Positions 1 to 54,398 of a stretch of 64,000 nt of DNA are shown here, in pieces. The stretch comes from Candidatus Uhrbacteria bacterium. GTDB taxonomy: Bacteria > Patescibacteriota > Patescibacteriia > UBA9934. The notes beneath the pieces were generated by a model. That model made no database searches. It was not told the origin of the DNA and worked only from the letters and a program-made list of their open reading frames with translations. The translations under genes were made by a program, and so were the position numbers. Every line of letters begins with the position of its first letter. Position 1 is the stretch's first letter. The stretch is from assembly GCA_963822405.1 (NCBI GenBank), contig CAWGHH010000004.1:6226-70225 (forward strand), read 5' to 3'.

Positions 1-401
1 CTGTAGACTGAGGCAAAACGAATATACGCTACCTTATCAAAAGTTTTTAAACGCTTCATGACGATCTCGCCTATCTCTGCACTAGTTAGCTCTCCCCCTC
101 TAATTTTTTGGATATCGCGCTCAATAGAATGCACCAAATGCTGCAGCTGAATATCCGTGTAAGGCCGCTTTTGCAAGGCCTGTTTAAGTCCGCTGATTAG
201 CTTTTCGCGCGAGTACGCTTCACGCTTGCCGTTCCGTTTCACTACAGTTACGTCGAGTAGCTCAATTTCTTCAACGGTGGAAAACCTAAAACCGCACTTC
301 TCTTTTTCGCATTCTCGACGACGCCTAACTCCCTGGCCATCAGACAGCAACCGCGAATCAACAACGCGGGTAGATTTAAAATTGCAGACAGGACAACGCA
401 T
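1..401 (-). CDS. nrdR: Transcriptional repressor NrdR (Zn-ribbon + ATP-cone), 3'-partial at window edge
   Basis: Manual translation of the minus strand from ATG at 401: MRCPVCNFKSTRVVDSRLLSDGQGVRRRRECEKEKCGFRFSTVEEIELLDVTVVKRNGKREAYSREKLISGLKQAL...GELTSAEIGEIVMKRLKTFDKVAYIRFASVY. This matches the NrdR CxxC...CxxC Zn ribbon and the ATP-cone ...VAYIRFASVY motif. It is absent from the ORF track because it runs off the edge. Confidence 0.85.
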   Translation of the reverse strand, partial: MRCPVCNFKSTRVVDSRLLSDGQGVRRRRECEKEKCGFRFSTVEEIELLDVTVVKRNGKREAYSREKLISGLKQALQKRPYTDIQLQHLVHSIERDIQKIRGGELTSAEIGEIVMKRLKTFDKVAYIRFASVY

Positions 402-405
402 AGCC

Positions 406-1722: not shown

Positions 1723-1804
1723 ACGCGGTAGATGTTGAACACCAAGTGTGTTCAGGCTATTCCTTCAATGAATACGTTTTGTATTCTACCGTATAGTACA
1801 CCAT

Positions 1805-3070: not shown

Positions 3071-3095
3071 AAAATGGAAGCGTACTGGAGCGTGC

Positions 3096-3488
3096 TTAGA
3101 GCTTACAGTAATGAATTATAGCACAGACTTTTTCCAAGACTGGGAGATACAAAATAGCTATCCCAACAATGAGTGCCGTCAAAGCGGTTATCAGGACCGC
3201 CCCCGCCATCATATCCTTCACATCCTTCACCATTGGACTTAATCGAGGCTGAACCGCGTCAGCTACTCGCTCAATAATGCTGTTAATAATTTCAAGGACG
3301 AGAACTGCCGAACAAAGAAGAATAAGCAAAATACGTTGCCAGGCAGCCAAGTCAAGAGTCAGCATCAGGACCACGACCACGAACGTTGCCAACACCTGGA
3401 TACGGAAGCTCTGCTCCGAATGAAAAAGCTCAGCCAAACCCTGGAGAGCGTGGCGCAGACTCCTAAAAAATGAGCGGGGTGAAATCAT
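3096..3488 (-). CDS. dgkA: Diacylglycerol/undecaprenol kinase (DgkA family) membrane protein
   Basis: 130 aa, three TM helices. Has the EIINSIIERVAD motif, which is DgkA-like (ExxNSAIE). Overlaps ybeY by 4 nt. Confidence 0.75.
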   Translation of the reverse strand: MISPRSFFRSLRHALQGLAELFHSEQSFRIQVLATFVVVVLMLTLDLAAWQRILLILLCSAVLVLEIINSIIERVADAVQPRLSPMVKDVKDMMAGAVLITALTALIVGIAILYLPVLEKVCAIIHYCKL

Positions 3489-3910
3489 AGGACAGTGGCC
3501 ACAATTTTATCTTGTAAAGGAAACATCTCATCAGCGTCTTCCGCCTTTTCATGATCGTAACCGAGCACGTGAAGGATCCCGTGAACCAAGAGATCTGTCA
3601 GTTCAAGTTCAAGATCTTCATCCTCCGCCTGTCTAACTGCCTGTGGAAACGAAATAATGACATCGCCAAGATACCCAGACCTATCCCCGTCCGGCGAACC
3701 GAACGATAAAACATCCGTAATCTTATCCTTCTTTCTATACATCCTGTTTAGTCGACGAATCTCGGCATCGTCAACAAAACTTATAGAAACTATTCCTGTT
3801 GTTTCTTCTCGCAAGGCAACGTCAAGTGCCTTAGCAATCTTAAGAAGTGCGGCCTTAGTAAACCGGCTTCCCTTTGGCACTAAATCTTGTTGGCAATCAA
3901 ACGTGATCAT
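3485..3910 (-). CDS. ybeY: rRNA maturation endoribonuclease YbeY
   Basis: 141 aa. Conserved HGILHVLGYDHE zinc-binding motif of the YbeY/UPF0054 family. Confidence 0.93.
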   Translation of the reverse strand: MITFDCQQDLVPKGSRFTKAALLKIAKALDVALREETTGIVSISFVDDAEIRRLNRMYRKKDKITDVLSFGSPDGDRSGYLGDVIISFPQAVRQAEDEDLELELTDLLVHGILHVLGYDHEKAEDADEMFPLQDKIVATVL

Positions 3911-4884
3911 GGGAGAAGATTTAAACCATTGAGCATCATCTGGAAGGTGGTCAGGAATTCAATGGTTTTTTCATCCCCAAGGTCATAAGTCAAAGTAAAT
4001 ACATTACTACCTCCGTCAACATAAGCAATCCGCTGATCCCGACGAGCCATTGCTAGCAAACCCTCAGTGGTATATGTGGTCTCTAGTTGTTGAGAATTTT
4101 CGTTCGGCACGTTTTGCTGATACCAAGTTTCTAAACTCTGCGTGGAATCTTTTGGTGTAACAGTAATAATAATAGCGGCAGTAGTTGGAGAACGGAAAGT
4201 TACCTTAGCAGTTGTCGAGTCTGCTACTGGCGTCCAAGCAGACGGGTAATAAATAGTAAACGGCAGATCGGTGCCCTGGAATACTCGAACCGCGCCGGTA
4301 TCGAGCAGTGTCAACGGAGCGGGACCGTTCGGATTGTACCGGTGGAATACCTCATTCCCGTCCAAGAACGTATCGCCATCTGTATCTGGATTTCGGTAAT
4401 CTGTCCCGTATAAAAGTTCCTCAATATCAGTCAAACCATCCGAGTCAGTATCCTTACCAGGCTGAGGCTCTAAAACCACCGGAATCGGTGTCGGAGTTGG
4501 TTCAGGAATTGGTTCAGGAACAGGTGTCGGAGCAACTACCGGGACCGGCATGAAGTAGAGATAATAAACCGTTCCCGCGCTGCCAAGTGCCAGGACAAAA
4601 AGAAGCAGAAATAAGAAAAGTAATACTCTAAACTTCTTTTTTGGCGGTGGAGTTATCGTGGCGGGCTTTGGAGGAATTGGTGCTGGGGCAACTACCGGCA
4701 GAGGGATTGGAGCGGGTACAGGTACCGGCACTGGAATTGGCACCACGGAGCCCGGCACGGGCACCGTGGACGACAAAGCCTTCCCCACAAACTCTTTTGG
4801 CATGACATGAATAACCATGTCGTCAGTTTTTATTGACGGCACCAAATTGCTTGTAGGTTGCTGTTCCTCTTTTTTTCCGAACAT
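3907..4884 (-). CDS. Bitopic membrane protein with Pro-rich N-terminus and C-proximal DxDxDG (thrombospondin type-3-like) Ca-binding repeats; paralog 1 of 3
   Basis: 325 aa. PVPVPVPAPIPLPVVAPAPIPP tract, one TM (FRVLLFLFLLLFVLALG), then DTDSDGLTDIEELLYGTDYRNPDTDGDTFLDGNEV and ...YNPNGP. Confidence 0.7.
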   Translation of the reverse strand: MFGKKEEQQPTSNLVPSIKTDDMVIHVMPKEFVGKALSSTVPVPGSVVPIPVPVPVPAPIPLPVVAPAPIPPKPATITPPPKKKFRVLLFLFLLLFVLALGSAGTVYYLYFMPVPVVAPTPVPEPIPEPTPTPIPVVLEPQPGKDTDSDGLTDIEELLYGTDYRNPDTDGDTFLDGNEVFHRYNPNGPAPLTLLDTGAVRVFQGTDLPFTIYYPSAWTPVADSTTAKVTFRSPTTAAIIITVTPKDSTQSLETWYQQNVPNENSQQLETTYTTEGLLAMARRDQRIAYVDGGSNVFTLTYDLGDEKTIEFLTTFQMMLNGLNLLP

Positions 4885-6469: not shown

Positions 6470-9400
6470 CTACGGTGAACAATAGTTGATCTTCACGTCA
6501 GAAAGCTTCACCTGTCCAGTACCTCTAAAAGTAACCTGGATCGGAATCTGCTTAGTGGTCGAACCATCACACTTAAAGCCAGAAGGCCAAGGCAATGTCT
6601 GACTAGAACCACCACGAAGTGCCACCGAATCTTGGTGAGCACCAGCAGAATCTGTGCTTAATAATCGGACGGTCACGCCAACAATTGAATTAATTACTCT
6701 TTCGTACGCGGTTCTGAGCTCTACCGCAGTATTTGCAGCGTAAGAATAATCGATACCTGTAGAACTACTATATTCGGTGCCCGTATTGCTCGACCACTGG
6801 TTCATGTGCGAAATAAATTTAGAACTAGAAGACAGCGCGATCGTATAAAGCTCGTAATCATCAAGCTTATCCGCTTGAGTATTTGCCCCCTTTAATGACC
6901 AAGAGGAAGTATTGGCGTTACAATCCCCACTCGTATAAGCGTTTCCAAGACTATCCATTCCACAAAATCCTGATGTAGTTGGGGTAGGCGCTACATCAGA
7001 CAAGAGAACAACTATTTTTCTCACGGTTGGAGAAAGTGGCGAAGTGACAGTGTCAAGTAAAGTTTTCGCCGCCAATAGACCCTGACCAATATCTGAACCG
7101 CTAATTACCGTGTAACCGTTTATTCTGGTTGTCAAAGTTGATTCACCTGTTTGATCAAGCATAGCTGACTGAGAGGTCGTATCGCCGAATTCAACTAATC
7201 CAACGTGCGCCTTAGCCGCCAACTCGCTAAAAAGAGTTGACACCGAACCCTTGAGAGAATCCTGCGTGGAACTTAACTTAGTGGTAGTCGTACCGCCAAA
7301 CACACTTCCCATCGAAGCCGCGCGAGTCGTCACAAAAACCACATACGCGTCAGGAAAAACAATATTGTCCAGAGATATACTACCAGAGAACCTTCCTGAA
7401 ACCGTACATGCAGGAACAGTGATGATGGTTGCGTTTGGTAAAGTTGAGGTCGAAGCTGCATCGTATGAATATAAATCTACACTCGAGCTTGGACGAGAAC
7501 CGGGCTGATTAGCTGTCATGAGTAGACTCGAATCAGAAAGTGATAATGGACAAGAGGAAGCGCATGATGCTGAACATTTAGGCTTCACACATTCGTAACT
7601 GAGACCAGCGGACTGGTCCTCACAATCAGCAACGTCTCCATAATAATGAGATAAAGTGATGTAGCTAGCCGTACACTTCTTTCCATTTCTCGGACCTCCG
7701 TTACAAACGCCGACATCGCTGCAAGTCGAACCGGCATCCACGACCGTAGTTGTCACGCTAGAAGACCTGATTAAGAGACATTTTGTCGGAGTCTTTGGCA
7801 ATGTTCCAGTGAACGCAGGACAGAATTCGCCAAAACTATTGCAGGAAGAATTGCCACCATCAAGATTATAGGCCGCGCATACAAATTGATTATTGCTGTT
7901 TTGTACACACTTGACCTTACCGCCAGCATTTTTGATAGCACCTGTAGCTTGACCGCAACTAGTGTCACCAAAGCCACTGCAAGTTTGTGTTGTAGCTATG
8001 CCACAGTCAAACGAATCACTAACCGTTGTAACTTGATGAGAGCTAGTTATCAGCTGCTGACCCAATGAGCTACAAGTGCCTGAAGTCGTATCTGTTTCTG
8101 CGTCGTAGAAGGTGTAGGGAACGTCAGTACCGTCGCAATATTCAGTCCCGTTCTTCACGCCGTCGCCACAGAAAGCGCCAGATGAAACCACATTTCGACA
8201 AGTAGTCGAACAGGCGCTACAGGTTGAGCCGTAAGACGAACTGCATGATCCGCCGTTTTGTACGCCAAGGTCACATTCTTCGGCAACTGGGTTCAAGGCA
8301 CCGTCGCCACAGACGTTCAACTTACAAGAAGAGGTACAGGCATCAGTGTCGTTCAAATTTCCATCGTCGCAGGTTTCGGCTCCCTCAATTTTTCCGTTTC
8401 CACAGGAAGGAAGATTAGTAGCGGAACAGTCAGTCGAAACGGTTGATAGCTGACAGGTTCCCGAACAAGTCTGGAACTTACTTGTAGGGTACATCTGAAC
8501 ACTGCACTTACCGCTCGTGCCACACATGCTATCTATAGTACAAATTTTTCCAAGTTTATCTATATCTCCTTTTTCACAAACCCGAGACGGCACGCACAGT
8601 GCGTCGGAAATGATTTTAACCTCTCCAACCTCACACTGTTCGTCGCTGTCTAGGTGCTTGTCGCCACAGTAAGGTGCAGGTCCAGAGCAATCCCAAGCAC
8701 AAGAAGTAGTGGCGTTAGATTGATAGACGCCATTTATTGCGCCACACGTTCCACCGCCAAAAGCTCTTCGGCCAACAAGAGGCGGCGTATTTCCACAGTC
8801 ACACTTTTCACTACCGGCCAACGAACCATCGCCGCAAGAAAAGCCGCTAGCCCTGGTACAATCCGCACCACAGAATCCATATGAGCCGTTCTTTGAACCA
8901 TCATCGCACTGCTCTATACCGTCCTTCACACCGTTACCACAAGTAGCGGCAACACAAGCTGCCTGCGTGTTATCCACAAAACCAGTACAAGAAGAATTAC
9001 AAATCTGTTTCCGGAAACCATCCATTATTCCGTCAGCGTTCCCGTCACAGGCCACTTCAGTCCCGCCAATCGAACCAACCTCGCAAACTTCTCCAGAACC
9101 AATTACGCCATCGCCACAGGTTGTCGAAGTGCCGAGAACCGTGTTCTGACAAACGTCGCCGGTGCTGAATCCACCAGTCGAACTATTTGCTCGACCAACA
9201 GTGATCTGCACGCCGTCTTGCAAGCCATCAGCATCAATCGAATTCGCCCAAGCCCCAGCAAATTCTAGATCAGCGTTAATCAACGTCGAGCTGTTTCCGT
9301 TCGCCAAGTACTGATAAACATGAGAACCAGCTGGACAAGTGTATGTGCCTTTAGTGGTGTCTACGCAAGTTGTCTTGTCATAACTAACAAGCGAGCTACC

Positions 9401-11074
9401 AACAACTCCACAGCCCGCAAAAGAATTCAATGGATCGGCCGGTAATTCTTTTGTACCAAGCGCACCACCAAGTATATCTGCCCAGCTTGGCCAAGTACTA
9501 GCGGCTACGTTTCTGACAAATGTACCAGCGGCTAATTCAGGAACGATTGGCGAACAGGATTCACCAAGCGGACATTCGGCACTTGTAGAACAAAGCTTTG
9601 AACGCGTTCCCGAGCAAACGCTATTTTCAGTGCTATAAGTTTTTACAGCCGAACGAATATCCGTCAGATCAGACAGGCGACGTACATCACGACGCACCTT
9701 TGCCTTAGTAGAAAGACAAACCGCACCAGGAGCGGCCGAAACACAATCAGCATCTGACGAACAGGTCTTATCCGTCAATGTTCCGTTAGCCAAACAGACT
9801 GTGTCATTTCCAAGATCTATGGCAAAGGAAATATTTCCAAGCATTAAATCAAATATTTTTTGAGCCGAGGCACTTGCTCCGTCGTTATACGATAAAACGT
9901 AAATATTGGAGTATAGCTTTCCGCCGCTATAATTAGAGGCTGAGACATAAACTGTTCGACCATCACGAACTGCCTCAAAACCGTCTACAGTTGTGTTTAC
10001 CGGACTACCCTTGAAGTTCTGCGCGTCATACCAAGCACGCGGCGAAAGGTAGCCAGGGTTGCTGACAATTCTTACGCCAATAGCATCACCAGAGTTATCA
10101 CCGATTTCAAACAAATACTGCTTAAGAATGTTCGTCGTTCCGCCTACTGGTGCCCGAACCGGCGTCACCGAAGGCAAGTCGTCAGTCAGGCCGACAGCTC
10201 CCTGATCTCGACAGAAATACGTAGAGAAATTCATCCAGCCATTTCCCTCTGAAGCCAATCCTTGAGCTCCACCAGTAGCATTGTCCTGCCATGGGAATTT
10301 AGACAATGTTGGCCAAGGATTTTCACAAAGAAGGGCCGTAACCTGAGCCGATCCCTTAGTCTTTTTATCTTTTGTTCCGCCAAGTGTATCCGCAGTGATA
10401 ATGGCCTCGGCCAGAATAGTTGTCTGACCGTTCTTACCAACAGTAGCGATACTCGCGGTGCTGTGATCAACACTGCTCTGTAGGGCAGTAAATAAAGCAG
10501 CATCACCGCTCACCCACTTGTCATAATCCCAAGCGTACACGTTTACAATCGGCACAATTTCTTGCGGGCCAGTAGCGGAATGAGAAACCGCCTTCGCTAC
10601 AAAGTTATGCATCTGATCTCCACGAGTAAAGAGATATGGACTGGTTTTATCAGTGTCTGAAATCTGAACCGCATCGAGAGCACAAAGTGATGGGCCAGTA
10701 GTGAAAGTAGAGGAAGTGACACCGCCCAAAGCAACGCCAGATGCCGCAGCTATTCCGGTTACTGACGAGTCGTTCACGTTCGTGTCACCCTCGACGACTA
10801 AGGTGTACTTAGCATTTGGCTCAAGTGCTTTTGCGTACTTCAAGTAAACTTTGTAAGTGCCATCATCCTGTGCAACCTGCGAGTATCCAGTCACCGGCAA
10901 CAAACACTTGGCGCCAACATTCGGCGCAGCTGAGGCAGACGCGCCCATGAAGAACCGAACGATCGAGTTTTTGACTAACGCGAAGAATCCCTTTGGATCA
11001 TGCGAAAGGGCAACCTGATAGCCACTTGGGCAAGTCATGTTCGGAGATACTGGTTCGAGCTGGCCCAGGACCAA
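6470..11074 (-). CDS. Giant (>=1534 aa) secreted Cys-rich repeat protein with C-terminal vWA-like domain; start uncertain (may be fused to the upstream giant ORF)
   Basis: Long ORF. Multiple C-x-CGDG/CGNG...E-CDDG...C repeats (e.g. [29 protein letters not shown]; [28 protein letters not shown]) of the Myxococcus-type cysteine-rich-repeat kind. C-terminal region resembles a vWA fold (AYVVFVTT...[10 protein letters not shown]). The 5' end overlaps the upstream ORF by about 77 to 100 nt in another frame and the tracked start is TTG. Confidence 0.7.
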
Positions 11075-14000
11075 CCGGAGCGCCGCCAGTCTCCAAGCTC
11101 AAATACATGTGATTTGTTTCAACTGTAGTAGCACCAACCACACTTGTTGTTGTAAAAGATTCTGTGTTCATCTTCTGCGTAAAGATAGCGTAGATAGCCG
11201 GGTTTCTACATGACGTAGAAGACGCAGTTGGGAACAAAGTAGCAGTTGGCCTTGGCATGCAGCAGTGCGCCGAACCAACTCCGTAAAGCGAAGGATTTGT
11301 ACAGCTAGCATCAGACGTGGCCACGCAAGAAAGAGAAAGATCGGCTGTAGTAGAAAGACCGGACGAATCTTCAGTCACTTGCACGGTAGCTAGAGCCTTC
11401 TTGGTTGTTCCATCCACCTCGAACACTGCACCATCAGAAATCACCGCAGTTTGCAGAGGATCGATTCTGCCGTCACCGGCTACGCCAACTTCACAAGCTG
11501 GATATTCGCCCACTCCAGCAAACCCGTCACCACAGAAAGATGCTTCCGTGTAAGCCGTGGAGGATCCCTCAAATAGACAGCGACTAGAACAGCCATCGCC
11601 GCTTACTTGGCTGCTATCATCACAGTCTTCAAAGACAGGACTGACGTCCCCATCGCCACAACCCTGCGCCTCCGTACCACCTTCATGCAAACAAGAAGAC
11701 GAACAGCCATCGCCGTTTACCACGTTCGAATCGTCACAGCTCTCAGCTGGAGCATCAACTCGACCATCGCCACAAACAGCCCCACCAATAGAAGCTAAAG
11801 TTGGCGTACCTTCGTTTGTACAGTTAGAAGAACAGCCGTCACCGTTTCTAGCGTTCCCGTCATCACATTCTTCACCGGCTTTAGTAGTAGCGTTTCGAGC
11901 AATGTCGTTGTTTCCGCAGGTTGCACCAACAGATCTAGAACCTTCGGCCTGACATTTACTAGAACAGCCGTCACCGTCAACCCCATTATGGTCATCACAA
12001 TCTTCCGCTAGATCGATCGTTCCGTTTCCACACATTGGAACAATAGTACCTTCACGTAAACACGAGGCCGAACAGCCATCGCCGCTTGCTACATTACCGT
12101 CTTCGCATTCTTCACCAGCAGTCGCGTCAAGCCGACCGTCGCCGCAAATAGCACGGTAGGCCACGCTGCCACCGGCAGTACATGAAGCTGTACAGGCGGA
12201 AGGAACTGAAGATGGGGACGTGTCCTGTAACTTTCCACCCAACCATTCAGCAACTACCGTTGAAGCATTACCATCAATGTTCTTGTCTACGATCGGGTTC
12301 GCCCAAGACCAAGAATATGAGAATCCGGTGAGTCTCTGACCAGACTGAGAACAGCTATCAGCCTCTCCGTATGCAGTGCTAGAGAATGTTGCCCTATCCC
12401 CAATCGATTTAGCTAATACACTAGCCGGGGAAATAGAAACTCTATTCACAGCACAAGCACTAGCATCTTCTCGAGCCCGGAAAATCCAAGAATAATCGCC
12501 ACCGTCATTTGTTCTGATTAATGGCACGCCACTCATACTCTTAACCGAGCCTGAGACAATTACCTTGTAAAAAGTGCTCGGATTCAAAGTGACTGTGGAC
12601 AAGGAGAAACCAGTACAATCGCCGGAAATACCAGTAACAGTGATACATTTAGCATTTGGGTTGGCAACTTCGCTAGTCGAAGAACAGAGTTCATTAGCAC
12701 AAGAGAACAAGCGAACAGCACCAGCCATTTCAACAGTCTGTGGCTTCATTGGAATGTTGAAACTCGCCCCGATCTGAGCGTTCATGCAAGCAGAATCACA
12801 ATCCGGCCACACACCCGTGACGTACGGATCTGTAAATTTAATGGTCAAATCACCAGCGCCCGAAGTGGTAGTGGTTCCAACAGTTGCTTTCACCGGAGTC
12901 TGGCCCTCAGCTAAAGCTTCAGCTGTAGCGCAAGAACTATTGCCACCAACACAAGATGGATTAGCCGTGCTATTAAAACCAGCAAAACTTGGGTTCATGC
13001 TCCACGCCCAGGTCACTGAGGCTGGATCAACCACTACACATCCAGAGGTTGGCAAGGCCGAGAAACTCTGCGTAGCATTCTTTGTCGTAAGCGAGGCTTT
13101 AGACGGAGAAACGCGAGCGCTATCAATTACACATGAACCGGCGTCAGTCTTAGTTAAGAATGTCCATTGAACATCATTCGGAAGAGCTATCCCGTCAGCC
13201 GACTGCGCATCAGTGGTGACAGTCACTCGATAGGTTGTGCCGGTGGCAAACACTGAGCCCGGCTTAAAAGTGAACGAGCTAGCGGTAGTTTGAACTGATC
13301 CGGTTACTGAAACCGCCGTAGAACACGGGTTAGATCCACCACCAGAACAACGCTCAACTTTCACCGCGCTGCCAAGCGTCGCTTGATTCATTGGGACAGT
13401 GAACTCCGCATAAACAACCGCGTTCACACAAACGGTATCTGTGAACTTAATGTTCGGCACAGAAGAAACAACAGCCTGTGAACATTCAGAAACAATTCGC
13501 GGAACCTTTGGCACAGATCCAGAAGAGAAACTCCAGGCGTAGCCACCACCCACCGCGCCAAGAGATACTGCCGGCGAGGAGACCGAGAATGGCACGTCAT
13601 TTCCCTTTACGCCGGCCGCGTTTACCAGACGAACGTTTCCTGATTGCGCCGCCGGAGGGACTACTGCTTTTACTTCAGTGTTACTCCATGAGCTGATGAC
13701 AGAAGTGACGCTCGACGAAAAAGTAACCGCTCCTTTTGTGCTTCCAAAATGGTCGCCCACCATTTTAACGACGTCTCCCGAAACACCAGTGCCAGGAATA
13801 ATGCCACACACATTTGGAGCATCATCCGTGGTCGATATAGTGAATGGAATAGTATTCGAATTCTGACCTCCAGCTGTAGTCATTGAAATAGTGTAAGCAC
13901 CAGGAAGCAAAGCAGTTCCCGCAGTACTGCTACCAGGAACAATAAATCTAACTGAAGTTGGGCTCCATGGGTTTACGGTACCGCAAGCCGCCGGGAAGTC

Positions 14001-16136
14001 TAAGCTAGCAATACCAATATCACCCGTGGCTGTATTCTTAAATTTAACCGTACCTTTAGCTGTGCCAAAATTGGCGCCTTCTAAACTGACGTATCGGCCA
14101 ATACCGCCCTGTCCAGGGTTTATAGATAGAAGCGAAGGAGCAGGAGTATTGGTTCCTGCGGTACCACCGGCTGAAGGAGGAATAGTCGATCCTGGCGTAG
14201 TGCCACCGGGAGGCGTGGTTCCGCTCGGGGGTGTAGTTCCGCCAGCTGAAGAACCTGCAGCGGCCGAAGTAAACCGCAAGCTAATCGAATTTGAAGAAAC
14301 CCCAGTTCCAGAAACTACTCGAACGCCGAATAATCCGTCACGCGTAGAAAGCACCGGCACAACAACCTGGGCTGAAGTGTCGCCCCACACTGGATATGAA
14401 GAACCGGTTTGAGCATTACCGAATGCAATAGTCGAGGCATTCACGCCCGACGGAGTTCTGTTCGCCCCGAATCCAGCGCCGATCAAAGTCAGCGAATCAC
14501 CAGCCTTAGCGCTCATGGCTGAAAGGCTACAAAGGTTAGGATGAATCACCGCGTCAACCACGAAGTTAGCAATCAGTGGACCTCTAACGTCACCCGTAGC
14601 ATCACGGCCAAGATCATCAGTTGCGTCAGCTCGAACAATTGAAATTGGACCGTTACCGGTGCCAGCAGGCACAACCACAATTACCTGGCGATCAGTCCAA
14701 CCTCCGTCACATGGCGCAAGTTGCGCCTCGATTGGAGCGCCGGAAGTAGCGAAAAATACTTTTCCTGGCGTAGCTCCAAAACCGTTACCAGAAATAGTTA
14801 CGTAAGTTCCAGGCGCGCCAGAAAGAGGAGAAACAGCTCTGATCACCGTCATGGCCTTACAAGTACCATTAACACAAGAGCCGGATTGGCAGTCAGTTGA
14901 AGCAGTACAGACAGAACCATCACACGCACCACAGTAATTAATGTTGGTCGGATCTCCGCCACAATCAATTCCAGTTTCGCCACTGCCAGAATCTAGAATG
15001 TTATTTTGACAACTTGCTGGCGACAACATAACAGAAACCGAATCCTCGGCCGTGTTCCCGGCCAGGTCAGTAATCGTCGACGAAAGATTAATAGTGTTGC
15101 CCGCATCAATATTGCTCGTATCCCATGAAGTACTGATAGTCACATTTTTCGGATCAGTTCCGCTGGCTGGCACTTCGTCAAAGCTCACGCTGCCAGCTAA
15201 GAATGTAGCGCTTGCCACCCCAACGTCGTCCGTTCCGATCACCTGCACATTCTGTGAACTATTCGCAGCGATTCGTTGTCCAGAAGTAGGGTCAGTTAAT
15301 CTGGCAGTTGGTGCTGTTTCGTCAATGATCGTCCCAGTTGTAAACGTGCCGGTACATGGACGGCTAGTAGGACAGGTCAACGCAGCCGCAGAAGTATTCT
15401 TAATGGCAGTAGTTAAAGTAACAGTGAACTGTGTGCTAGCGTCGAAACATCTAGTCACGGAACCAGTGGAACAAGGCGTAGTTGGCTTAAACGTGATCAC
15501 GTTCCCAGAAACGGAAGGCGTGCCATCAATAACCGCGCCGGTAAGTGTATTTTTTACTGTGAATGCCCCAGCGATGCTTGCTGGATCAACATTCTTTGAG
15601 AATGTAACCCGAACTTGAGGATTACGAATAGTGATTTCTCCGGCAGGTTTTACGCCAGTCACTACGAATGCACTACCAGAGCCTCCGCCAAGCGCCGAAC
15701 CTCCGCCGGCACCACCCCCACCACCAGTGCCACCGCTCCCGCCGGCTCCAGTCGCGCCCAAGATAGAGGACATAACAAAAGACACAATAGACCAGGACAT
15801 CAAGATAATCATGAGGCCAATTCCACCACCAATCAAAATCTTTTTAGCTTTCGCGACATTCTCTTCGTTTCCAGCGGCCGTCATCCAAACAAAACCACCG
15901 TAAAGAACAATCACCACCGCCACAACACCAAGCAAAGAAATTCCAGTTCTAATCAAGCGCGCCACGATGAGTCTAGGATCTTCGCTGCCCAAGCCAGCTG
16001 ACTGCCCCACCACATCAAGCCCGCCCTGGACATCCGCCGACTGGGCTAAAGCGATCATCGGCAAAGCGAACGGCAAGGCCGTACTCGCCATGACGAGTGC
16101 TCCGAGGACTAGATGTTTTAAGGGCTTGATGTTCAC
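10998..16136 (-). CDS. Giant (1712 aa) cell-surface protein: signal peptide + 2-TM hairpin anchor, Gly-rich linker, Ig-like and IPT/TIG-like domains, Thr/Pro linker, six Cys-rich CGDG...CDDGN...GDGCS repeats
   Basis: N-terminus MNIKPLKHLVLGALVMASTALPFALPMIALA-QS (AxA-type cleavage site). TM1 ISLLGVVAVVIVLYGGFVWMTAAGNEENVAKAKKILI, TM2 GGGIGLMIILMSWSIVSFVM, then a GGSGGTGGGGGAGGG linker. IPT/TIG-like segments (SGAPGTYVTISGNGFG; GQGGIGRYVSLEGANFG; GVSGDVVKMVGDHFG). C-terminal repeats such as ICGDGRLDATAGEECEDGNVASGDGCSASC, six copies. Confidence 0.85.
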   Translation of the reverse strand: MNIKPLKHLVLGALVMASTALPFALPMIALAQSADVQGGLDVVGQSAGLGSEDPRLIVARLIRTGISLLGVVAVVIVLYGGFVWMTAAGNEENVAKAKKILIGGGIGLMIILMSWSIVSFVMSSILGATGAGGSGGTGGGGGAGGGSALGGGSGSAFVVTGVKPAGEITIRNPQVRVTFSKNVDPASIAGAFTVKNTLTGAVIDGTPSVSGNVITFKPTTPCSTGSVTRCFDASTQFTVTLTTAIKNTSAAALTCPTSRPCTGTFTTGTIIDETAPTARLTDPTSGQRIAANSSQNVQVIGTDDVGVASATFLAGSVSFDEVPASGTDPKNVTISTSWDTSNIDAGNTINLSSTITDLAGNTAEDSVSVMLSPASCQNNILDSGSGETGIDCGGDPTNINYCGACDGSVCTASTDCQSGSCVNGTCKAMTVIRAVSPLSGAPGTYVTISGNGFGATPGKVFFATSGAPIEAQLAPCDGGWTDRQVIVVVPAGTGNGPISIVRADATDDLGRDATGDVRGPLIANFVVDAVIHPNLCSLSAMSAKAGDSLTLIGAGFGANRTPSGVNASTIAFGNAQTGSSYPVWGDTSAQVVVPVLSTRDGLFGVRVVSGTGVSSNSISLRFTSAAAGSSAGGTTPPSGTTPPGGTTPGSTIPPSAGGTAGTNTPAPSLLSINPGQGGIGRYVSLEGANFGTAKGTVKFKNTATGDIGIASLDFPAACGTVNPWSPTSVRFIVPGSSTAGTALLPGAYTISMTTAGGQNSNTIPFTISTTDDAPNVCGIIPGTGVSGDVVKMVGDHFGSTKGAVTFSSSVTSVISSWSNTEVKAVVPPAAQSGNVRLVNAAGVKGNDVPFSVSSPAVSLGAVGGGYAWSFSSGSVPKVPRIVSECSQAVVSSVPNIKFTDTVCVNAVVYAEFTVPMNQATLGSAVKVERCSGGGSNPCSTAVSVTGSVQTTASSFTFKPGSVFATGTTYRVTVTTDAQSADGIALPNDVQWTFLTKTDAGSCVIDSARVSPSKASLTTKNATQSFSALPTSGCVVVDPASVTWAWSMNPSFAGFNSTANPSCVGGNSSCATAEALAEGQTPVKATVGTTTTSGAGDLTIKFTDPYVTGVWPDCDSACMNAQIGASFNIPMKPQTVEMAGAVRLFSCANELCSSTSEVANPNAKCITVTGISGDCTGFSLSTVTLNPSTFYKVIVSGSVKSMSGVPLIRTNDGGDYSWIFRAREDASACAVNRVSISPASVLAKSIGDRATFSSTAYGEADSCSQSGQRLTGFSYSWSWANPIVDKNIDGNASTVVAEWLGGKLQDTSPSSVPSACTASCTAGGSVAYRAICGDGRLDATAGEECEDGNVASGDGCSASCLREGTIVPMCGNGTIDLAEDCDDHNGVDGDGCSSKCQAEGSRSVGATCGNNDIARNATTKAGEECDDGNARNGDGCSSNCTNEGTPTLASIGGAVCGDGRVDAPAESCDDSNVVNGDGCSSSCLHEGGTEAQGCGDGDVSPVFEDCDDSSQVSGDGCSSRCLFEGSSTAYTEASFCGDGFAGVGEYPACEVGVAGDGRIDPLQTAVISDGAVFEVDGTTKKALATVQVTEDSSGLSTTADLSLSCVATSDASCTNPSLYGVGSAHCCMPRPTATLFPTASSTSCRNPAIYAIFTQKMNTESFTTTSVVGATTVETNHMYLSLETGGAPVGPGPARTSISEHDLPKWLSGCPFA

Positions 16137-44784: not shown

Positions 44785-45569
44785 CTAGTATATCTTCACG
44801 GTTGGTTCAGGCGTCAACAATTCTGGACCACTCGGCAGAATAGCAATAGTTACTTCAAAATGGGCTGAAATAGATTTATCGGCCGTTATTATGGTCCAAC
44901 CGTCTTTGGCGGTCACAACATCATGAGTACCAAGCGTGACCATCGGTTCAATGGCTAAGCACATCCCCTCTTTAAGATTTGTTTTAGGAAATGCGTTACT
45001 AACATAATTCGGCACATGAGGAGATTCGTGAATGGCGTGACCTACGCCATGACCAACTAACGCCTCCACGATTCCGTATTTCTTTTTATTAATGGCCCCT
45101 CCACTGCCACGCTAATGTCATGTACAGTTCCGCCAATTTTTGCCGCCGCCACCCCCGCACGCATTGACTCACGAGTAGTGTTTAAAAGCTGTTTCAATTC
45201 ATCGGAAATTTCCCCCACAGGAACCGTGACCGCCATATCAGTGCACATGTCTTTATACCAACAACCAATATCAAGCCCAACTACATCCCCCTCATTCAGT
45301 ACTATATCTCGAGTGCCAACGCCATGAACAACCTCTTCGTTAACCGAGATACAAACAGTTGAGGGAAAGGGGGTTTTATTACCGCCCTTGTAGCCCAAAA
45401 AAGATGGCTTTCCGCCTCCCTTCTCAATAACCCCGCGCGCGATAGTATCAAGCTCATGCATGGTTACTCCCGGTCTAATCGCATCCACTGCCGCCTGAAG
45501 CGCTCTGGACAATAAAACCCCACCCTCACGCATGGCTTGGATCTCTTCTTTTGTTTTAATCAAAGCCAT
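44785..45569 (-). CDS. map: Methionine aminopeptidase type I, with a -1/+1 frameshift in a poly-A tract near 45068-45080
   Basis: ORF 45057..45569 carries the MetAP N-terminus plus D/D metal ligands. ORF 44785..45069 carries ...VGHGVGHAIHESPHV...E...E ligands. The junction lies in ccattaataaaaagaaatac, where a 1-nt shift restores a continuous protein. Confidence 0.85.
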
Positions 45570-46129: not shown

Positions 46130-47142
46130 CTAAGGGATGATAGATGCTATACAGGCTTGTTGCAAGATATACCCCTCACAATGGTCAAGCATTCCCAAAT
46201 ATGACGAGATATTCGTCGAATTAACCTTCCTCAACATCCGCCTTTTCGTCTTAGTTCTCAGCACCCGGTGGTACGGCCGAGTGACATATCCAAGGAAATC
46301 AATCCCTTGTGATAATTTCCTGACCTCGATTTTTCTAGGATGAAGTTCGAGTCGTCTCTCCCGCCAAAACCAAGCCTCAATCCAGGGAATAAGCTCTTTA
46401 AGCCGATCTCTGTCTTGATCAAGAATAACCGCATCATCGGCAAACCGAATATAGAACCTTTCTCGTAAATCTTCTTTGATAAAATGGTCGAATGCATCCA
46501 TGTAGACATTTGCAAACAATTGACTGGTCAAATTTCCAATCGGCAGTCCAACCATCCGAACGTCTTTTAGTGAACCCCCCCCCCAACCCTGTCATGCAAA
46601 ATCGAAACATGAAAACTACCCACAATCTCCCGGAGTAACGTCATCACGCGCCGGTCCTGAATCTTTTCGTCAAGTAGCCCGAGCAAAATCTCGTGATCCA
46701 CCGAATCAAAAAACCTTCTAATATCAAATTTAAGTGCCCAACAAGAATCCGTCCAATTCTCGCTTGTCTTTCTCACAAAAACCTCAAGCCGCTCCACTGC
46801 GGCATGCGTCCCCTTATCATCCCGACACGAATAACTATCAAAGATAAATGACCGTTCAAAAATCGGTAGCAGAACCCGATAAATAGCGTGATGAACAAGT
46901 CGATCACGAACAGTTGCCTTATTAATTATTCGTGGCTTGGGGTCAAAGACTTTGAACCGATGATACGGCCCATGTCGATAGGTGCCGTTAAACAGTTCTT
47001 CATGCAGTTCAAACACATGATCTTCAAGATTCCGTTCAAACATCTGCACGTCAATTCGCCCACGTTTGCCATCAGCACAAAATTCACGCCATGCGTTAAA
47101 TAGATTCGTCTTACTAACTATCTTTGAAAATATGTCTCTCAT
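46130..47142 (-). CDS. DGR reverse transcriptase (about 335 aa), split by a frameshift in a 10-nt poly-C/G run at 46575..46584
   Basis: RT domains 0-3 in ORF 46567..47142 (NAWREF..., TVRDRLVHHAIYRVLLPIFE, FIFDSYSCRDDKGTHAA, LKFDIRRFFDSVDHEIL). Domains 4-7 in ORF 46130..46555 (GLPIGNLTSQLFANVYM, the DGR-diagnostic [ILV]GxxxSQ motif rather than the group II QGxxxSP; YIRFADDAVIL). No maturase or endonuclease domains. Confidence 0.88.
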
Positions 47143-47476
47143 ACAAGAAGCGCCAGTATTCCAGTTAATTTATGACGAGCTCAAGGCGTTCCATCTCCTC
47201 AGAAAGAAGTTCGATAAAGGTGAACGGTATTCACTTGGCGAAAAAACCGAGCAAACACTACTTGACGTGCTCTTAGAGATCATCAAGGCCGGAACGTCAA
47301 AAAATGAATGGAAAATTGCCGCCATAGACTCCGCCAGTAAGCATCTTGAGGTCACTAAAATTCTCCTAAGACTCGCAAACGACATGGAACAGATTGAGGA
47401 TAAACATTATGAGGAACATCAGGAACGGATCAGCAGGGCGGGAAGAATGCTCGGTGGCTGGCGAAAAGCATCATAA
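47132..47476 (+). CDS. avd: DGR accessory variability determinant (Avd, four-helix-bundle family)
   Basis: About 115 aa from MSLIQEAPVFQLIYDELKAFHLLRKKFDKGERYSLGEKTEQ... to ...RAGRMLGGWRKAS. FPKxEKYxLxxQ-like and C-terminal GRxLGxW motifs as in bAvd. Its start codon overlaps the divergent RT start (atgtctctcat). Confidence 0.8.
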   Translation: MSLIQEAPVFQLIYDELKAFHLLRKKFDKGERYSLGEKTEQTLLDVLLEIIKAGTSKNEWKIAAIDSASKHLEVTKILLRLANDMEQIEDKHYEEHQERISRAGRMLGGWRKAS

Positions 47477-47516
47477 CGCAAACGCCCAGCTCAGCTGGAC
47501 GTTTGAGAGAAAACAG

Positions 47517-47642
47517 TCCCGGCGGAAGACTACCGTGCCGTACTGCGGATTCGCGTCATCGTTCCTGTTGTCGTTCAGCTTCGGCGAACCGTTCCACACC
47601 AGGAGGTACGCGCAGTTCGAGCGGTTCTCACGGTGGACGGAA
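47517..47642 (-). repeat. DGR template repeat (TR), 126 bp
   Basis: 88% identical to 47965..48090. All 12 mismatches have T on the plus strand (A in the minus-sense TR) where the VR has C, G or A. Confidence 0.9.
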
Positions 47643-47960
47643 AGATCTTCTGTATGCCAGACCCCATCTATTTCACCTCAGCTTCCGCACTAGGCGCGAG
47701 GTTGCTGATGAATTTCATTTAGGCCATATCCTAAGAATCTGGCAAGGAGTGTCTCATCTGATCGTACGCTCCCGTGTCTCACAACACGGAATTCTGACGA
47801 TAGCTCGTTTGAGGATTTCGGGGCCGGAGAGGCTTAGTTCTTCGTTCATTACCCTACTCTCAAGATGAGTATATATGAAAATCCTCCAGTCAGCTTGCGC
47901 CGACCGGAGGATCGAGGGTTGATGGCACGAGAAGCACCGAGAACCCAATGACCGAGGACT

Positions 47961-48740
47961 TTACTCCCGGCGGAAGACTACCGCGCCGCACTGCGGATGC
48001 GCGTCATCGTCCCTGAAGCCGTGCAGCTTCGGCGAACCGTACCACACCAGGAGGTACGCGCAGCACGAGCGGTTCCCACGGTGGACGGAACCAGGCAAGT
48101 CCATCACGTGCTCGCCTTCCACCGCCACGTTCTGGCTCTGATGGTGAATCCAGATTGCCAGGCCAACTTCCGCAGTTCCAGGGAAGAAGCCACGCTTCAC
48201 GGCCTCTTCCCGGCACACGCTCGGCTTCTTGCCGCGGTTCACGCGCCCGTCATGCGCCCGGATCCAGTGTGGCTCTGCCGGCGTGATGTCGCGCGGGCTG
48301 TACGGCTCCAGATTGGACACGCCGCAGTCTTTCACGAGAGCCAGCTCGCAGGTCTTCACCAGCCCGTTGACCGGGTAGACGAGGGTCAGGAGCGGGAAGT
48401 CGGGGTCATGCTCGAGGAGCGAGTCCGGGATCTCCGGGATGGTGGCCAAGAAGGCCTCCCAGAGATCCTTGCCCTTAAGCCGCCCGTTGAACTTCAGGTC
48501 GTACAAGCGCTTCGCCTGCGTTACCCGGGTATCGTCCGGCTTGCGGCGGCCCAACTTCTGAAGCGCCTCCTGGAAGGCCTTGGGCAGCTTGTTGCCGGAC
48601 TCGATGATCCGCTGAGCGGACTCGCCGTCCAACTCGTCCAACTTGCTCGTGAGCACCAAGAAGGCGTCCTCCACGAACCGCTTAAGTTGTTTCTTCTGTC
48701 CATCCGTCTGACCAGACGTGATCGCCTTGGGCGTCATCAT
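47961..48740 (-). CDS. DGR target protein (259 aa) with C-terminal variable region
   Basis: GGAGG-N-ATG at 48740. The C-terminal 42 codons coincide with the VR. GC-rich. The N-terminal domain is unassigned. Confidence 0.8.
   Translation of the reverse strand: MMTPKAITSGQTDGQKKQLKRFVEDAFLVLTSKLDELDGESAQRIIESGNKLPKAFQEALQKLGRRKPDDTRVTQAKRLYDLKFNGRLKGKDLWEAFLATIPEIPDSLLEHDPDFPLLTLVYPVNGLVKTCELALVKDCGVSNLEPYSPRDITPAEPHWIRAHDGRVNRGKKPSVCREEAVKRGFFPGTAEVGLAIWIHHQSQNVAVEGEHVMDLPGSVHRGNRSCCAYLLVWYGSPKLHGFRDDDAHPQCGAVVFRRE
47965..48090 (-). repeat. DGR variable repeat (VR) at the 3' end of the target gene
   Basis: Starts 1 nt after the TAA stop (47961..47963) and covers the last 42 codons (...CCAYLLVWYGSPKLHGFRDDDAHPQCGAVVFRRE). 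Confidence 0.9.
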
Positions 48741-48815
48741 CCACCTCCTAACACATGGGTTCCGCCATGTCGGTTTGTACCGGAATCACCCAACGGATGT
48801 GCCGATAACCGGCTA

Positions 48816-48844
48816 ATCATAGCAAAAAAATGGTCTTTTGTCAA
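48816..48844 (-). promoter_or_regulatory. Consensus sigma70 promoter, module C (TTGACA-N17-TATGAT) for the DGR target gene
   Basis: Minus strand TTGACA at 48844..48839 and TATGAT at 48821..48816. Same module as A and B, including the upstream GGCTAAT element. Confidence 0.65.
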
Positions 48845-48933
48845 GGTAAAATCACCATAAATTGGCTAATTCAAGCCAAACAAAAAGTCCATCTCTAGAT
48901 TCTTCGCCCATGCTCAGAAACGAATTCGGCAAA

Positions 48934-48962
48934 TCACCAAAACGACCCCGTTAAGGGTCGTT
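48934..48962 (-). terminator. Rho-independent terminator downstream of secY
   Basis: Minus strand aaacgaccc-uuaacg-gggucguuu followed by a U-run. Confidence 0.6.
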
Positions 48963-49029
48963 TGTCTTATCTCGTCTTGTGCGCGTCTCCCCCTCCACGA
49001 AGTGGAGGGGGTTTAGGGGGAAGGAAAAT

Positions 49030-54143: not shown

Positions 54144-54398
54144 TTAAGCTTTGCTAACAACTCTCCAGCGTTTCAAGGCTGAAAGTGGACGTGTTTCCTC
54201 AATCACAACTTTATCGCCGGCTTGAATATCCGGTGACTCATTATGAGCCAAGTACTTCGCGCTCACTGAGTAGCGCTTTCCATACTTAGGGTGGATCACA
54301 GTGCGATCAACTCGAACGGACACGGTTTTCATCATCTTCGTAGAGACGACCGTGCCGATCAAGCGGCGGCGAGTGATTTTTTTTGTTTCGTTCGTCAT
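54144..54398 (-). CDS. rpsQ: 30S ribosomal protein S17
   Basis: OB-fold LIGTVVSTKMMKTVSVRVDR. Confidence 0.93.
   Translation of the reverse strand: MTNETKKITRRRLIGTVVSTKMMKTVSVRVDRTVIHPKYGKRYSVSAKYLAHNESPDIQAGDKVVIEETRPLSALKRWRVVSKA

Follow-up and report, generated by a model that had tools for sequence, protein, structure and literature searches.

Organization of the locus

The window (here, the whole 64-kb stretch of DNA that was analysed) carries a diversity-generating retroelement (DGR) between secY and adk. Its genes and associated features are, in plus-strand order:

46130-46574, minus strand: C-terminal part of the reverse transcriptase (RT) gene, with GLPIGNLTSQ, the F-ADD catalytic motif and the thumb; RVT_1 profile positions 118-203
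46575-46584, minus strand: G10 homopolymer (C10 on the plus strand), encoding a VGGG loop; the frameshift site
46585-47142, minus strand: N-terminal part of the RT gene, motifs 1-3; RVT_1 profile positions 8-91; matches bRT 8ub7; its reading frame stops at 46567
47132-47476, plus strand: avd, 114 aa, divergent to the RT gene; PF22296 bAvd, 2.8e-15
47480-47504, no strand assigned: hairpin between the 3' end of the template region and the convergent 3' end of avd; conserved position
47517-47642, minus strand: template region (TR), forming an ungapped repeat pair with the variable region
47654-47862, minus strand: structured noncoding RNA with three helical domains, directly 5' of the TR; covariation
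47868-47873, minus strand: -10-like box TATACT, 7-9 nt upstream of the structured RNA; TATAAT in most relatives
47881-47912, minus strand: hairpin about 50 nt downstream of the variable region; 14 pairs (2 of them G.T), GCAA loop, then TTTTC
47961-48740, minus strand: target gene, 259 aa; N-terminal helical region and C-terminal C-type lectin-fold domain
47965-48090, minus strand: variable region (VR), 126 nt in codons 217-259 of the target, differing from the TR at 12 positions
48816-48844, minus strand: promoter-like site TTGACA-17-TGnTATGAT, TG-extended, upstream of the target; 11/12 match

Two of these components, the repeat tract in the RT and the conserved structured RNA between VR and TR, were absent from the initial annotation.

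The element is a real DGR: the target ends in a VR, TR and Avd are present, the RT is of the DGR type, and TR and VR differ in an adenine-specific way. It belongs to a chromosomal kind already known from CPR bacteria (Patescibacteria, Uhrbacteria-like clade). The initial annotation had described a 126-bp TR/VR pair differing solely at TR adenines, and tabulation by alignment agrees: the pair aligns without gaps over 126 nt, all 98 non-adenine positions are identical, and each of the 12 mismatches is a coding-strand A of the TR (T on the plus strand) that reads C, G or A on the plus strand of the VR. With adenine at 28 of the 126 TR positions, the placement of 12/12 mismatches on adenines has a hypergeometric P=1.6e-9. 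The VR also lies, as had been proposed, in the last 42 codons of the target and in frame with its open reading frame (48740-47961), and 10 codons are changed, of which 7 read AAC or AAT in the TR. At their 3' ends TR and VR match throughout, so that no IMH/IMH* difference is visible. For the target C-terminus, the VR-bearing end, a C-type lectin or FGE fold had been predicted and a C-type lectin fold was found; the 259-aa protein as a whole matches no Pfam family and has no obvious signal peptide. The assignment of avd on the plus strand likewise holds by its match to bAvd. The start codons of avd and RT overlap by 11 nt, and the Avd protein is 88-89% identical to its counterparts at two related loci (L002 and L003).

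The RT gene is split at a poly-G tract

The DGR-specific IGNLTSQ motif noted previously is present as GLPIGNLTSQ (motif 4, of the I/LGxxxSQ type), along with the catalytic FADD. Treating 47142-46130 as a single RT gene does not survive a check of its integrity. The span is 1013 nt long, no multiple of 3, and as assembled it consists of two open reading frames, one of 191 aa (47142-46567) and one of 141 aa (46555-46130), with the C-terminal part in the -1 frame relative to the N-terminal part. The break lies at the G10 tract, where G8 or G11 would be needed for an in-frame RT, so that the window is one G short of G11. Outside the tract, the two halves contain no stops and no further indels. The initial description of a complete DGR is thus correct as to the DGR parts and the adenine specificity, and incorrect as to an intact RT. 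When the frame is repaired, the best solved relative of the protein is the Bordetella phage bRT 8ub7 (1.4e-48), group II intron RTs follow at 1e-20, and identity to CPR RTs (annotated as Candidatus Uhrbacteria, Berkelbacteria and Parcubacteria) is 55-66%; these named relatives are the basis for placing the element with CPR/Uhrbacteria-like bacteria. The G10 tract is the sole G or C run of at least 8 in the 64-kb window; the only other homopolymer of that length is a T8 at 54377-54384.

If the split were a sequencing or assembly artefact, the RT would be intact (G8 or G11), homopolymers would be miscalled here and in relatives, and the element would be a complete CPR DGR of the ordinary sort. 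Short-read chemistry has difficulty with poly-G runs of 9-11, the contig of one relative (L016) stops at the tract, and map, on the same contig as the DGR, has a 1-nt deletion compared with an intact homologue (L020); because this essential gene is also frameshifted, some indel error in the window assembly is possible. Against an artefact, G10 was repeated by an independent assembler: the Logan assembly L023, built from run ERR12037365, shows 100% identity with the window along 8399 nt, the G10 frameshift included. Further evidence on this point comes from related loci.

Variation of the tract in related loci

A metagenome scan with the RT yielded 4 loci, and the wider survey covered a protein database and GTDB genomes. 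Among 13 related CPR loci from GTDB representative genomes or metagenomes, 8 lose the reading frame precisely at the homologous tract, which is G9-G10 in them, and the in-frame loci have tracts of G5-G9. The three nearest alleles are all in the out-of-frame (OFF) state (window G10, L002 G9, L003 G9). To restore a full-length RT, a +1 shift is needed at seven loci and a -1 shift at the window and L012.

Similar truncation is widespread in the protein database. Of the best 120 protein clusters matching the N-terminal half of the RT, about 100 are fragments ending at VGGG or ERERE, whose tails commonly represent both wrong frames, and many of these fragments sit on contigs of 50 kb to 1 Mb. It should be noted that the ratio of fragments to full-length proteins (about 100:16) gives no estimate of OFF:ON, as candidates were chosen by shared words and are therefore biased. 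Clusters at 90% identity contain the full-length and both truncated forms together, with identical N-termini.

Length polymorphism that toggles the reading frame on otherwise identical alleles is directly observed in relatives, where tract lengths are G9-G11 or (AG)8-10. In Uhrbacteria from Rifle, the RT occurs with G9, G10 or G11 and with 0 differences in 589 + 440 nt of flank: G11 (ON) in three contigs, G10 (OFF) in three, two of them read, and G9 (OFF) in eleven, four of them read. At Hainich, (AG)9 was found in two contigs and (AG)8 in three contigs from replicate samples, with 0-1 flank differences. The two repeat types encode unlike peptides in the same loop of the RT, GGG from poly-G and ERER from (AG)n, and GGG accounts for only 34% of the Gly codons elsewhere in these RTs. 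Both observations suggest selection for the repeat itself.

These observations also bear on the possibility of an artefact. Out-of-frame tracts recur across many studies and assemblers (SPAdes, MEGAHIT, IDBA-type, Logan), both wrong frames are found, whole-unit changes between (AG)8 and (AG)9 in replicate samples correspond to no known short-read error mode, and the in-frame G11 was correctly assembled in three contigs of the same Rifle gene. An error of sequencing or assembly is thus quite improbable as the general explanation.

Evidence for continued function

Purifying selection acts on the RT half that follows the frameshift. Its dN/dS is 0.07-0.14 at dS of about 1-1.8 (window, L002 and L003, all out of frame), the N-terminal part has a dN/dS of 0.06-0.09, and adk, for comparison, has 0.06. 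TR/VR differences in OFF-state loci are still adenine-only, and the Rifle contigs show a single SNP in 3 kb, at a TR-adenine site of the VR. Avd, the RNA preceding the TR and the TR itself are all conserved among relatives.

These data can be set against the view that the DGR is a fossil, its RT inactivated by frameshift and its VR frozen. Decay would fit the split RT, the OFF state of all three nearest alleles, and the damage seen at two related loci, one of which (L020, at the same site) no longer has the N-terminus of avd and the N-terminal half of the RT while another (L001) retains an orphan target only. It does not fit RT halves without stops or indels beyond the tract, the low dN/dS of the downstream half at saturated dS, the identity of TR and VR at 98 non-adenine positions, the conservation of Avd, pre-TR RNA and TR, or the presence of ON and OFF alleles together on identical backgrounds in relatives. 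We therefore regard decay as very unlikely.

A different possibility is that slippage of the polymerase or ribosome on the G run gives a little full-length RT at any tract length, in which case being out of frame would be the normal low-expression state, as in frameshift-dependent IS transposases. Most alleles are out of frame, yet their downstream half is under purifying selection; trace amounts of RT suffice, and long homopolymers are slippery. A single programmed frameshift was nevertheless rejected as an explanation, since the direction of the required shift differs among loci (with both kinds of wrong-frame tail common among the fragments), which leaves no one conserved programmed shift. 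In addition, (AG)n repeats are not classical ribosomal slippery sites, and in-frame alleles occur on the same background. Recoding as the whole explanation is accordingly unlikely; it is compatible with phase variation, to which it may add.

Structured RNA, hairpins and candidate promoters

The RNA directly upstream of the TR contains 48 pairs, 32 of which show compensatory changes. In the alignment, 94% of cells are paired, compared with 36-51% in slid controls, and 0/500 shuffles reach the observed level. A covariance model (R1) matched 8 loci outside its training set at 87-196 bits, with one at 22. No Rfam family reached its gathering score for this RNA, and at the 13 related loci no RT-associated family did. 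Assignment to Rfam RT-16 (RF03019) was rejected, the local match (47656-47744, minus strand) scoring 22 bits against a gathering score of 50. The structured RNA is probably part of the DGR template RNA; this role, like the transcription units described here, is inferred. The -10-like box just upstream is a candidate promoter of the TR-containing RNA.

A hairpin follows the TR in all 7 (of 8 aligned) loci that reach past it, and at L006, L008 and L010 the hairpins differ in sequence and are followed by T runs. The hairpin at 47480-47504 probably acts as a bidirectional terminator, at which the TR RNA would end. The second hairpin (47881-47912) had been noted as a DGR feature just downstream of the VR. 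It does exist, with a folding z-score of -3.1, and it is kept in L002, L020 and L001 with compensatory changes. Given its distance of about 50 nt from the VR and the TTTTC that follows, a target-gene terminator explains it at least as well, and it could be such a terminator, a DGR target-site hairpin, or both. The consensus promoter attributed to the cassette corresponds to the site at 48844-48816, which would by its consensus match serve the target gene.

Composition and age of the insertion

The cassette had been described as GC-rich and as consistent with horizontal acquisition. Only part of it has this composition: GC is 63% in the target and 54% in the TR plus spacer, while RT (44%) and avd (45%) are host-like, close to adk and secY (46-47%). 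Across all loci examined, GC is 0.61-0.71 in the target family and 0.44-0.55 in the RT, so that high GC is a property of the target family. Adenine depletion was considered as its cause and rejected, A and T being about equal on the coding strand. The order secY-DGR-adk is also found in L002 and L020, whose synonymous sites are saturated relative to the window (dS at least 1). A site shared across this synonymous distance means that the insertion is old in the lineage and, together with the host-like GC of RT and avd, speaks against recent horizontal acquisition into the ribosomal locus. Relocation of the DGR cassette does occur, as a closely related cassette lies at a different site in L003 and L001.

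Comparison with known systems and proposed mechanism

Chromosomal DGRs of CPR/Patescibacteria were reportedly described by Paul et al. 2017. The same CPR DGR group appears as the 'CPR set' of Wu et al. 2018 (PMC5758913) and as 'DGR clade 2' of Roux et al. 2021 (PMC8144416). Like these, the present element is cellular rather than viral, and in its target, in keeping with published work on the clade, no Pfam or transmembrane domain can be recognised.

With the DGR of phage BPP-1 (mtd-avd-TR-brt), the element shares adenine-specific transfer from TR to VR, Avd together with an RT bearing I/LGxxxSQ, a C-type lectin-fold target with a C-terminal VR, and a hairpin downstream of the VR. BPP-1 requires flanks of the TR, 300 nt upstream and a 144-nt spacer downstream (PMC6182149). 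Several differences from that system were found. Here avd is inverted and overlaps the start of the RT, a conserved, structured and noncoding RNA lies 5' of the TR, and a terminator-like hairpin follows the TR after about 12 nt, in contrast to the spacer of about 140 nt in BPP-1. The hairpin near the VR is some 50 nt away and terminator-like, and about 20 extra residues, which hold the repeat, are inserted into the RT ahead of motif 4.

In its repeat, the RT resembles the contingency loci known from poly-G tracts in genes of Neisseria, Campylobacter and Haemophilus: an intragenic mononucleotide (G, at least 8) or dinucleotide repeat whose length toggles the frame between otherwise identical alleles. 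Classical contingency loci gate surface or restriction-modification genes of host-adapted pathogens, whereas here the repeat would gate the mutator enzyme of a system for targeted hypermutation, in groundwater bacteria that are free-living or episymbiotic.

On balance, we consider it probable that the element is a CPR-type DGR in which the RT is gated by a hypermutable repeat, present in the window at an OFF length. A minus-strand RNA would run from a structured leader of about 210 nt through the TR to the terminator hairpin, and an Avd-RT complex would copy this RNA with misincorporation at template adenines. The resulting cDNA would replace the last 42 codons (the VR) of the C-type lectin-fold protein encoded beside secY. 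Slipped-strand changes in the length of the simple-sequence repeat, which lies in a surface loop just before GLPIGNLTSQ (poly-G here, (AG)n in a sister lineage), would shift the catalytic half of the RT in or out of frame, so that RT-ON and RT-OFF cells would coexist in a population. OFF alleles may still yield some RT through slippage of the RNA polymerase or the ribosome on the G run.

A further step, which we take more tentatively and hold to be plausible rather than probable, is that the tract is an evolved contingency switch. The element would then be a two-tier system, with heritable, stochastic ON/OFF gating of a targeted hypermutator, and together with the 5' RNA and the terminator-proximal TR it would represent a mechanistically distinct DGR subtype. 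Under such a switch, which would be adaptive and reversible, a subpopulation alone would diversify the lectin-fold protein at any time, and good VR variants would be locked in once the RT slips OFF. Against a switch, the element might be dispensable and the OFF alleles loss-of-function mutations that arise often and are tolerated. The literature searched, which did not extend to Paul et al. 2017, made no mention of a repeat tract or frameshift in a DGR RT, and in passing no description of a pre-TR structured RNA was met there.

Implications for DGRs in CPR bacteria

Gene callers split these RTs, and more than 100 clusters of half-RTs were found; CPR DGRs are therefore probably undercounted or wrongly scored in surveys that demand an intact RT reading frame. 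Attempts to reconstitute a DGR from outside Bordetella biochemically could start from the conserved pre-TR RNA, a defined candidate for the template. A switch of this kind would bear on how DGR mutagenesis is restrained in cells and how they keep useful variants; no on/off mechanism within a DGR RT gene was found in the literature searched. If the tract is a true switch, the length of this one repeat would predict how active DGRs are in the bacterial radiation richest in them, and existing metagenome time series, in which ON fraction and VR diversity can be compared, would allow a direct test.

The retroelement between secY and adk

The element is a genuine diversity-generating retroelement (DGR) of the CPR type, a known kind, found here in a genotype in which the reverse transcriptase (RT) is out of frame (OFF, as opposed to in frame, ON). 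Its parts are arranged as follows.

50295-49030, - strand: secY, first in the minus-strand order of the region
between secY and avd, in minus-strand order: promoter-like site, target gene, hairpin, conserved noncoding RNA, template region (TR), hairpin
47132-47476, + strand: avd, accessory protein gene, between the TR-side hairpin and the RT
47142-46130, - strand: RT, after avd and before adk
46123-45572, - strand: adk, followed by map

As the initial annotation had proposed, the TR (47517-47642) and the variable region (VR, 47965-48090) form an ungapped 126-nt repeat whose 12 mismatches all fall at coding-strand TR adenines. The TR holds 28 adenines, the chance of 12/12 mismatches landing there is 1.6e-9, and 98/98 non-adenine positions are identical. 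The VR does occupy the last codons of the target gene, in frame (codons 217-259 of a 259-aa protein), and 7 of its 10 altered codons are AAC or AAT in the TR. Such codons at varied sites are the usual DGR design. The avd call was confirmed by a match to PF22296 (bAvd, 2.8e-15), and the reported DGR-specific RT motif is present as GLPIGNLTSQ, along with an F-ADD catalytic box. The best solved relative of the repaired RT is the Bordetella phage bRT (8ub7, 1.4e-48), far above group II intron RTs. Taken together, the adenine pattern, the VR frame, the Avd match, the RT motifs and the relationship to bRT make the DGR identification sound. The proposed consensus promoter corresponds to a promoter-like site at 48844-48816 that matches at 11/12 positions. 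The avd (+) and RT (-) genes diverge from overlapping start codons, with 11 nt in common (47132-47142), an arrangement shared by the related locus L002; the promoter of each must therefore sit within the coding sequence of the other. Elsewhere in the window, two very large neighbouring minus-strand ORFs of 1534 and 1712 aa (6470-16136) overlap slightly and may represent one giant gene or two.

A repeat tract interrupts the RT gene

The RT (47142-46130) had been listed as part of a complete element, but it is not intact: the span is 1013 nt long and reads as two frames, an upstream ORF of 191 aa ending in HDRVGGGVH and a stop, and a downstream ORF of 141 aa in the -1 frame, beginning MVGLPIGNLTSQ. 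The frame breaks at a tract of ten coding-strand Gs (G10; 46575-46584, C10 on the plus strand). Nowhere else in the 64-kb window do G or C form runs of 8 or more. With G11 or G8 the gene would encode an unbroken protein of 337 or 336 aa, respectively. Aligned with bRT, the tract falls within a ~20-residue insertion directly before motif 4, so one added glycine should be tolerated.

Related loci were compared by retrieving 13 CPR loci from species-representative genomes, using peptide patterns of both RT halves, and adding 2 metagenome contigs. The frame changes exactly at the homologous poly-G tract in 8 loci, with G9 (L002, L003, L009, L015) or G10 (L010, L011, L012, L013), and L016 has G11 at the point where its contig ends. 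The in-frame loci L004-L008 carry G5-G9, and in L007 an (AG)10 repeat stands at the tract position, in frame. Seven out-of-frame loci have one G in surplus; the window and L012 are one G short. A single programmed frameshift was rejected, since it could not restore every locus when surplus and deficit both occur. In L008 and L022 (~6756-6770) the RT is in frame at G7 and the frame changes downstream, at query residue ~262-267. The 1.0-Mb complete MAG chromosome OZ246408.1 (L013) encodes at least 2 DGR RTs: P0037 is annotated as full-length (319 aa) and P0236 is out of frame at its G10 tract.

The same pattern is found in the protein database, where ~100 of the best 120 clusters matching the N-terminal RT half are fragments of 155-254 aa. 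They break off at VGGG and carry tails read in one or the other wrong frame, many on contigs of 50 kb-1 Mb, and ~30 more fragments stop at ERERERE, where an (AG)n repeat takes the place of the G tract. Among non-CPR DGR RTs from the same scan, neither a G run nor an (AG)n repeat occurs in the gene: L014 and L018 lack repeats altogether, and L017 and L021 have T7 and A7-9 runs only.

These data are most economically read as a simple-sequence-repeat switch that gates the RT. Slipped-strand mispairing would change the tract length and thereby place the catalytic RT half in or out of frame; an assembly would show whichever length dominates the sample, and the window allele would be an OFF length one step from ON.

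Tract length varies on identical backgrounds

Full-length RTs and both truncated types, with identical N-terminal sequences, fall together in clusters at 90% identity. In one Candidatus Uhrbacteria RT from the Rifle aquifer, the tract occurs at three lengths although its flanks (589 nt upstream, 440 nt downstream) show 0 differences.

Tract lengths of the Rifle RT
G11: in frame, 348 aa (L024-L026)
G10: out of frame (L031, L032)
G9: out of frame (L027-L030; product found on 11 contigs)

Homopolymer error may account for part of the signal. A 1-nt deletion in map, an essential gene on the same contig, adds weight to this concern (break at ~45094-45099, GAGGGGCC in the window vs GAGGGCGCC in the intact homologue of locus L020). 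L023, assembled by Logan from run ERR12037365, matches the window at 100% identity across 8399 nt, G10 included; the tract is thus not one assembler's peculiarity, although both assemblies may rest on the same reads. The strongest argument for biological length variation comes from Hainich well H51, where one RT with 0-1 flank differences carries (AG)9 in 2 replicate samples and (AG)8 in 3, a change of a dinucleotide unit that is atypical of short-read error. Neither length is in frame, as (AG)7 or (AG)10 would be. The map gene itself (44785-45569, -) is split into 170 + 94 aa, a split that L023 repeats. Either this essential gene is truly a pseudogene here, perhaps with a second copy elsewhere, or the split is a read-level error.

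OFF alleles may also be no more than frequent, tolerated knock-outs, or may yield a trickle of RT by slippage in transcription or translation. The evidence speaks against a dead gene. Among the window, L002 and L003, all out of frame, dN/dS of the RT half downstream of the tract is 0.07-0.14 at dS ~1-1.8, compared with 0.06-0.09 for the upstream half and 0.06 for adk, and no stops were found in the downstream frame. Adenine-only TR/VR differences are kept in every related locus, OFF ones included (L002, 12; L009, 21; L010, 21; L015, 16; L024, 15). Across the 3 kb that precede the RT, the Rifle contigs differ at one site only, a G/A polymorphism in the VR where the TR has adenine. The homopolymer is kept across lineages with saturated synonymous sites, although elsewhere in these RTs only 34% of glycines are encoded by GGG. 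Since (AG)n encodes a different peptide at the same loop, it is the repetitiveness that is conserved and not the peptide. We found no earlier description of a polymorphic RT repeat tract in the searchable literature, which did not include Paul et al. 2017.

A conserved RNA precedes the TR

The initial annotation overlooked one component of the DGR, a conserved noncoding RNA 5' of the TR (pre-TR RNA). The VR-TR interval (~320 nt) is conserved far above the target protein, and RNAalifold predicts three helical domains with 48 pairs from ~47862 to 47654 (-). Compensatory changes occur in 32/48 pairs; 94% of cells are paired, vs 36-51% with partners slid, and 0/500 shuffles reach the observed values. 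Trained on 8 loci, a covariance model detects the RNA just upstream of the TR in 8 loci outside the training set (176-196 bits in 5, 87-91 bits in 2 and 22 bits in 1). It matches neither the non-CPR DGR loci nor L001, the locus with an orphan target. Rfam holds no family for it at gathering score, and membership in RT-16 was rejected on a match of 22 bits, below threshold.

A TATAAT-like box lies 7-9 nt upstream of the RNA and a terminator-like hairpin ~12-40 nt after the TR in loci extending that far; we infer a dedicated leader-TR transcript. The DGR of BPP-1 needs 300 nt upstream of the TR and a 144-nt spacer downstream (PMC6182149). In the window DGR, by contrast, the hairpin follows the TR too closely to leave a long 3' spacer, and one may speculate that the priming geometry therefore differs from that of BPP-1.

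The hairpin past the VR (47881-47912) is real (14 pairs, z -3.1) and conserved among relatives with compensatory changes; the DGR target-site role implied for it is not favoured over that of a terminator. It lies ~50 nt past the VR and is followed by TTTTC, and its G.T pairs work on the sense strand only. As an explanation, a terminator is no less likely than a target-site cruciform of the BPP-1 type.

The target protein

The target matched no Pfam family and has only 28 homologues among 5.8 billion sequences. Aligned, these have a core that is conserved and a C-terminal pattern that varies, DLPGSVHR..R..CAYL.VW.G...L.....A.P..G.VVFRRE. The AlphaFold model from this alignment is confident (pLDDT 87.8; >90 for residues 70-259). 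Structures listed with the model are the Bdellovibrio Bd2740 tip domain (9.3), the CD72 CTLD (7.7), the FGE paralogue SUMF2 (7.6), Treponema TvpA (6.6) and Bordetella Mtd (6.4). No signal peptide or membrane segment is evident in the target, as is also reported for targets of the CPR DGR clade (Roux et al., PMC8144416).

The targets of the window, L002 and L020 share only 42-52% identity, against 80-90% for neighbouring genes, which suggests a gene that is either fast-evolving or swapped by exchange. The cassette had been called GC-rich, which is true of the target (63%) and the TR (54%) but not of the RT and avd, which are host-like (44-45%). The target family has 61-71% GC in L001, L002, L008, L009, L010, L015, L020 and the window, whatever the host GC; this is 12-21 points above the adjacent RT, with A ~ T and no adenine-specific depletion. 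The high GC could reflect GC-rich donors via exchange or a compositional constraint.

Location and history

The secY-DGR-adk order is also found in L002, with all parts present. At its secY-adk-map locus, L020 (Ga0315281_10034534, 1-4300) has a degraded DGR that lacks, through deletion, the avd N-terminus and the N-terminal half of the RT; the target, TR, VR and pre-TR RNA are kept, map is intact, and the VR differs from the TR at adenines only. SecY of these two contigs is 87-91% identical to that of the window with saturated synonymous sites, so the insertion is old in the lineage. A recent invasion of the ribosomal locus by horizontal acquisition is thus not supported. CPR DGRs among ribosomal protein genes have already been recorded (Wu et al., PMC5758913).

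The RT closest to that of the window (87%) is in L003, where avd-RT (1-2208) adjoins a 128-aa membrane protein and ClpB. The same neighbours in L001 (7458-8400) accompany an orphan target and post-VR hairpin, with a GIY-YIG gene ahead and no pre-TR RNA, TR, avd or RT. These pieces at another chromosomal site imply that the cassette, or parts of it, relocate. Two strong hairpins between secY and the DGR promoter (48940-49013) are probably the secY terminator:

~48991-49013: CCCCCTCCAC-GAA-GTGGAGGGGG
48940-48963: AAACGACCC-loop-GGGTCGTTT

The secY-adk location is a lineage-specific curiosity; the interest of this DGR lies in the polymorphic RT repeat tract and the conserved pre-TR RNA.
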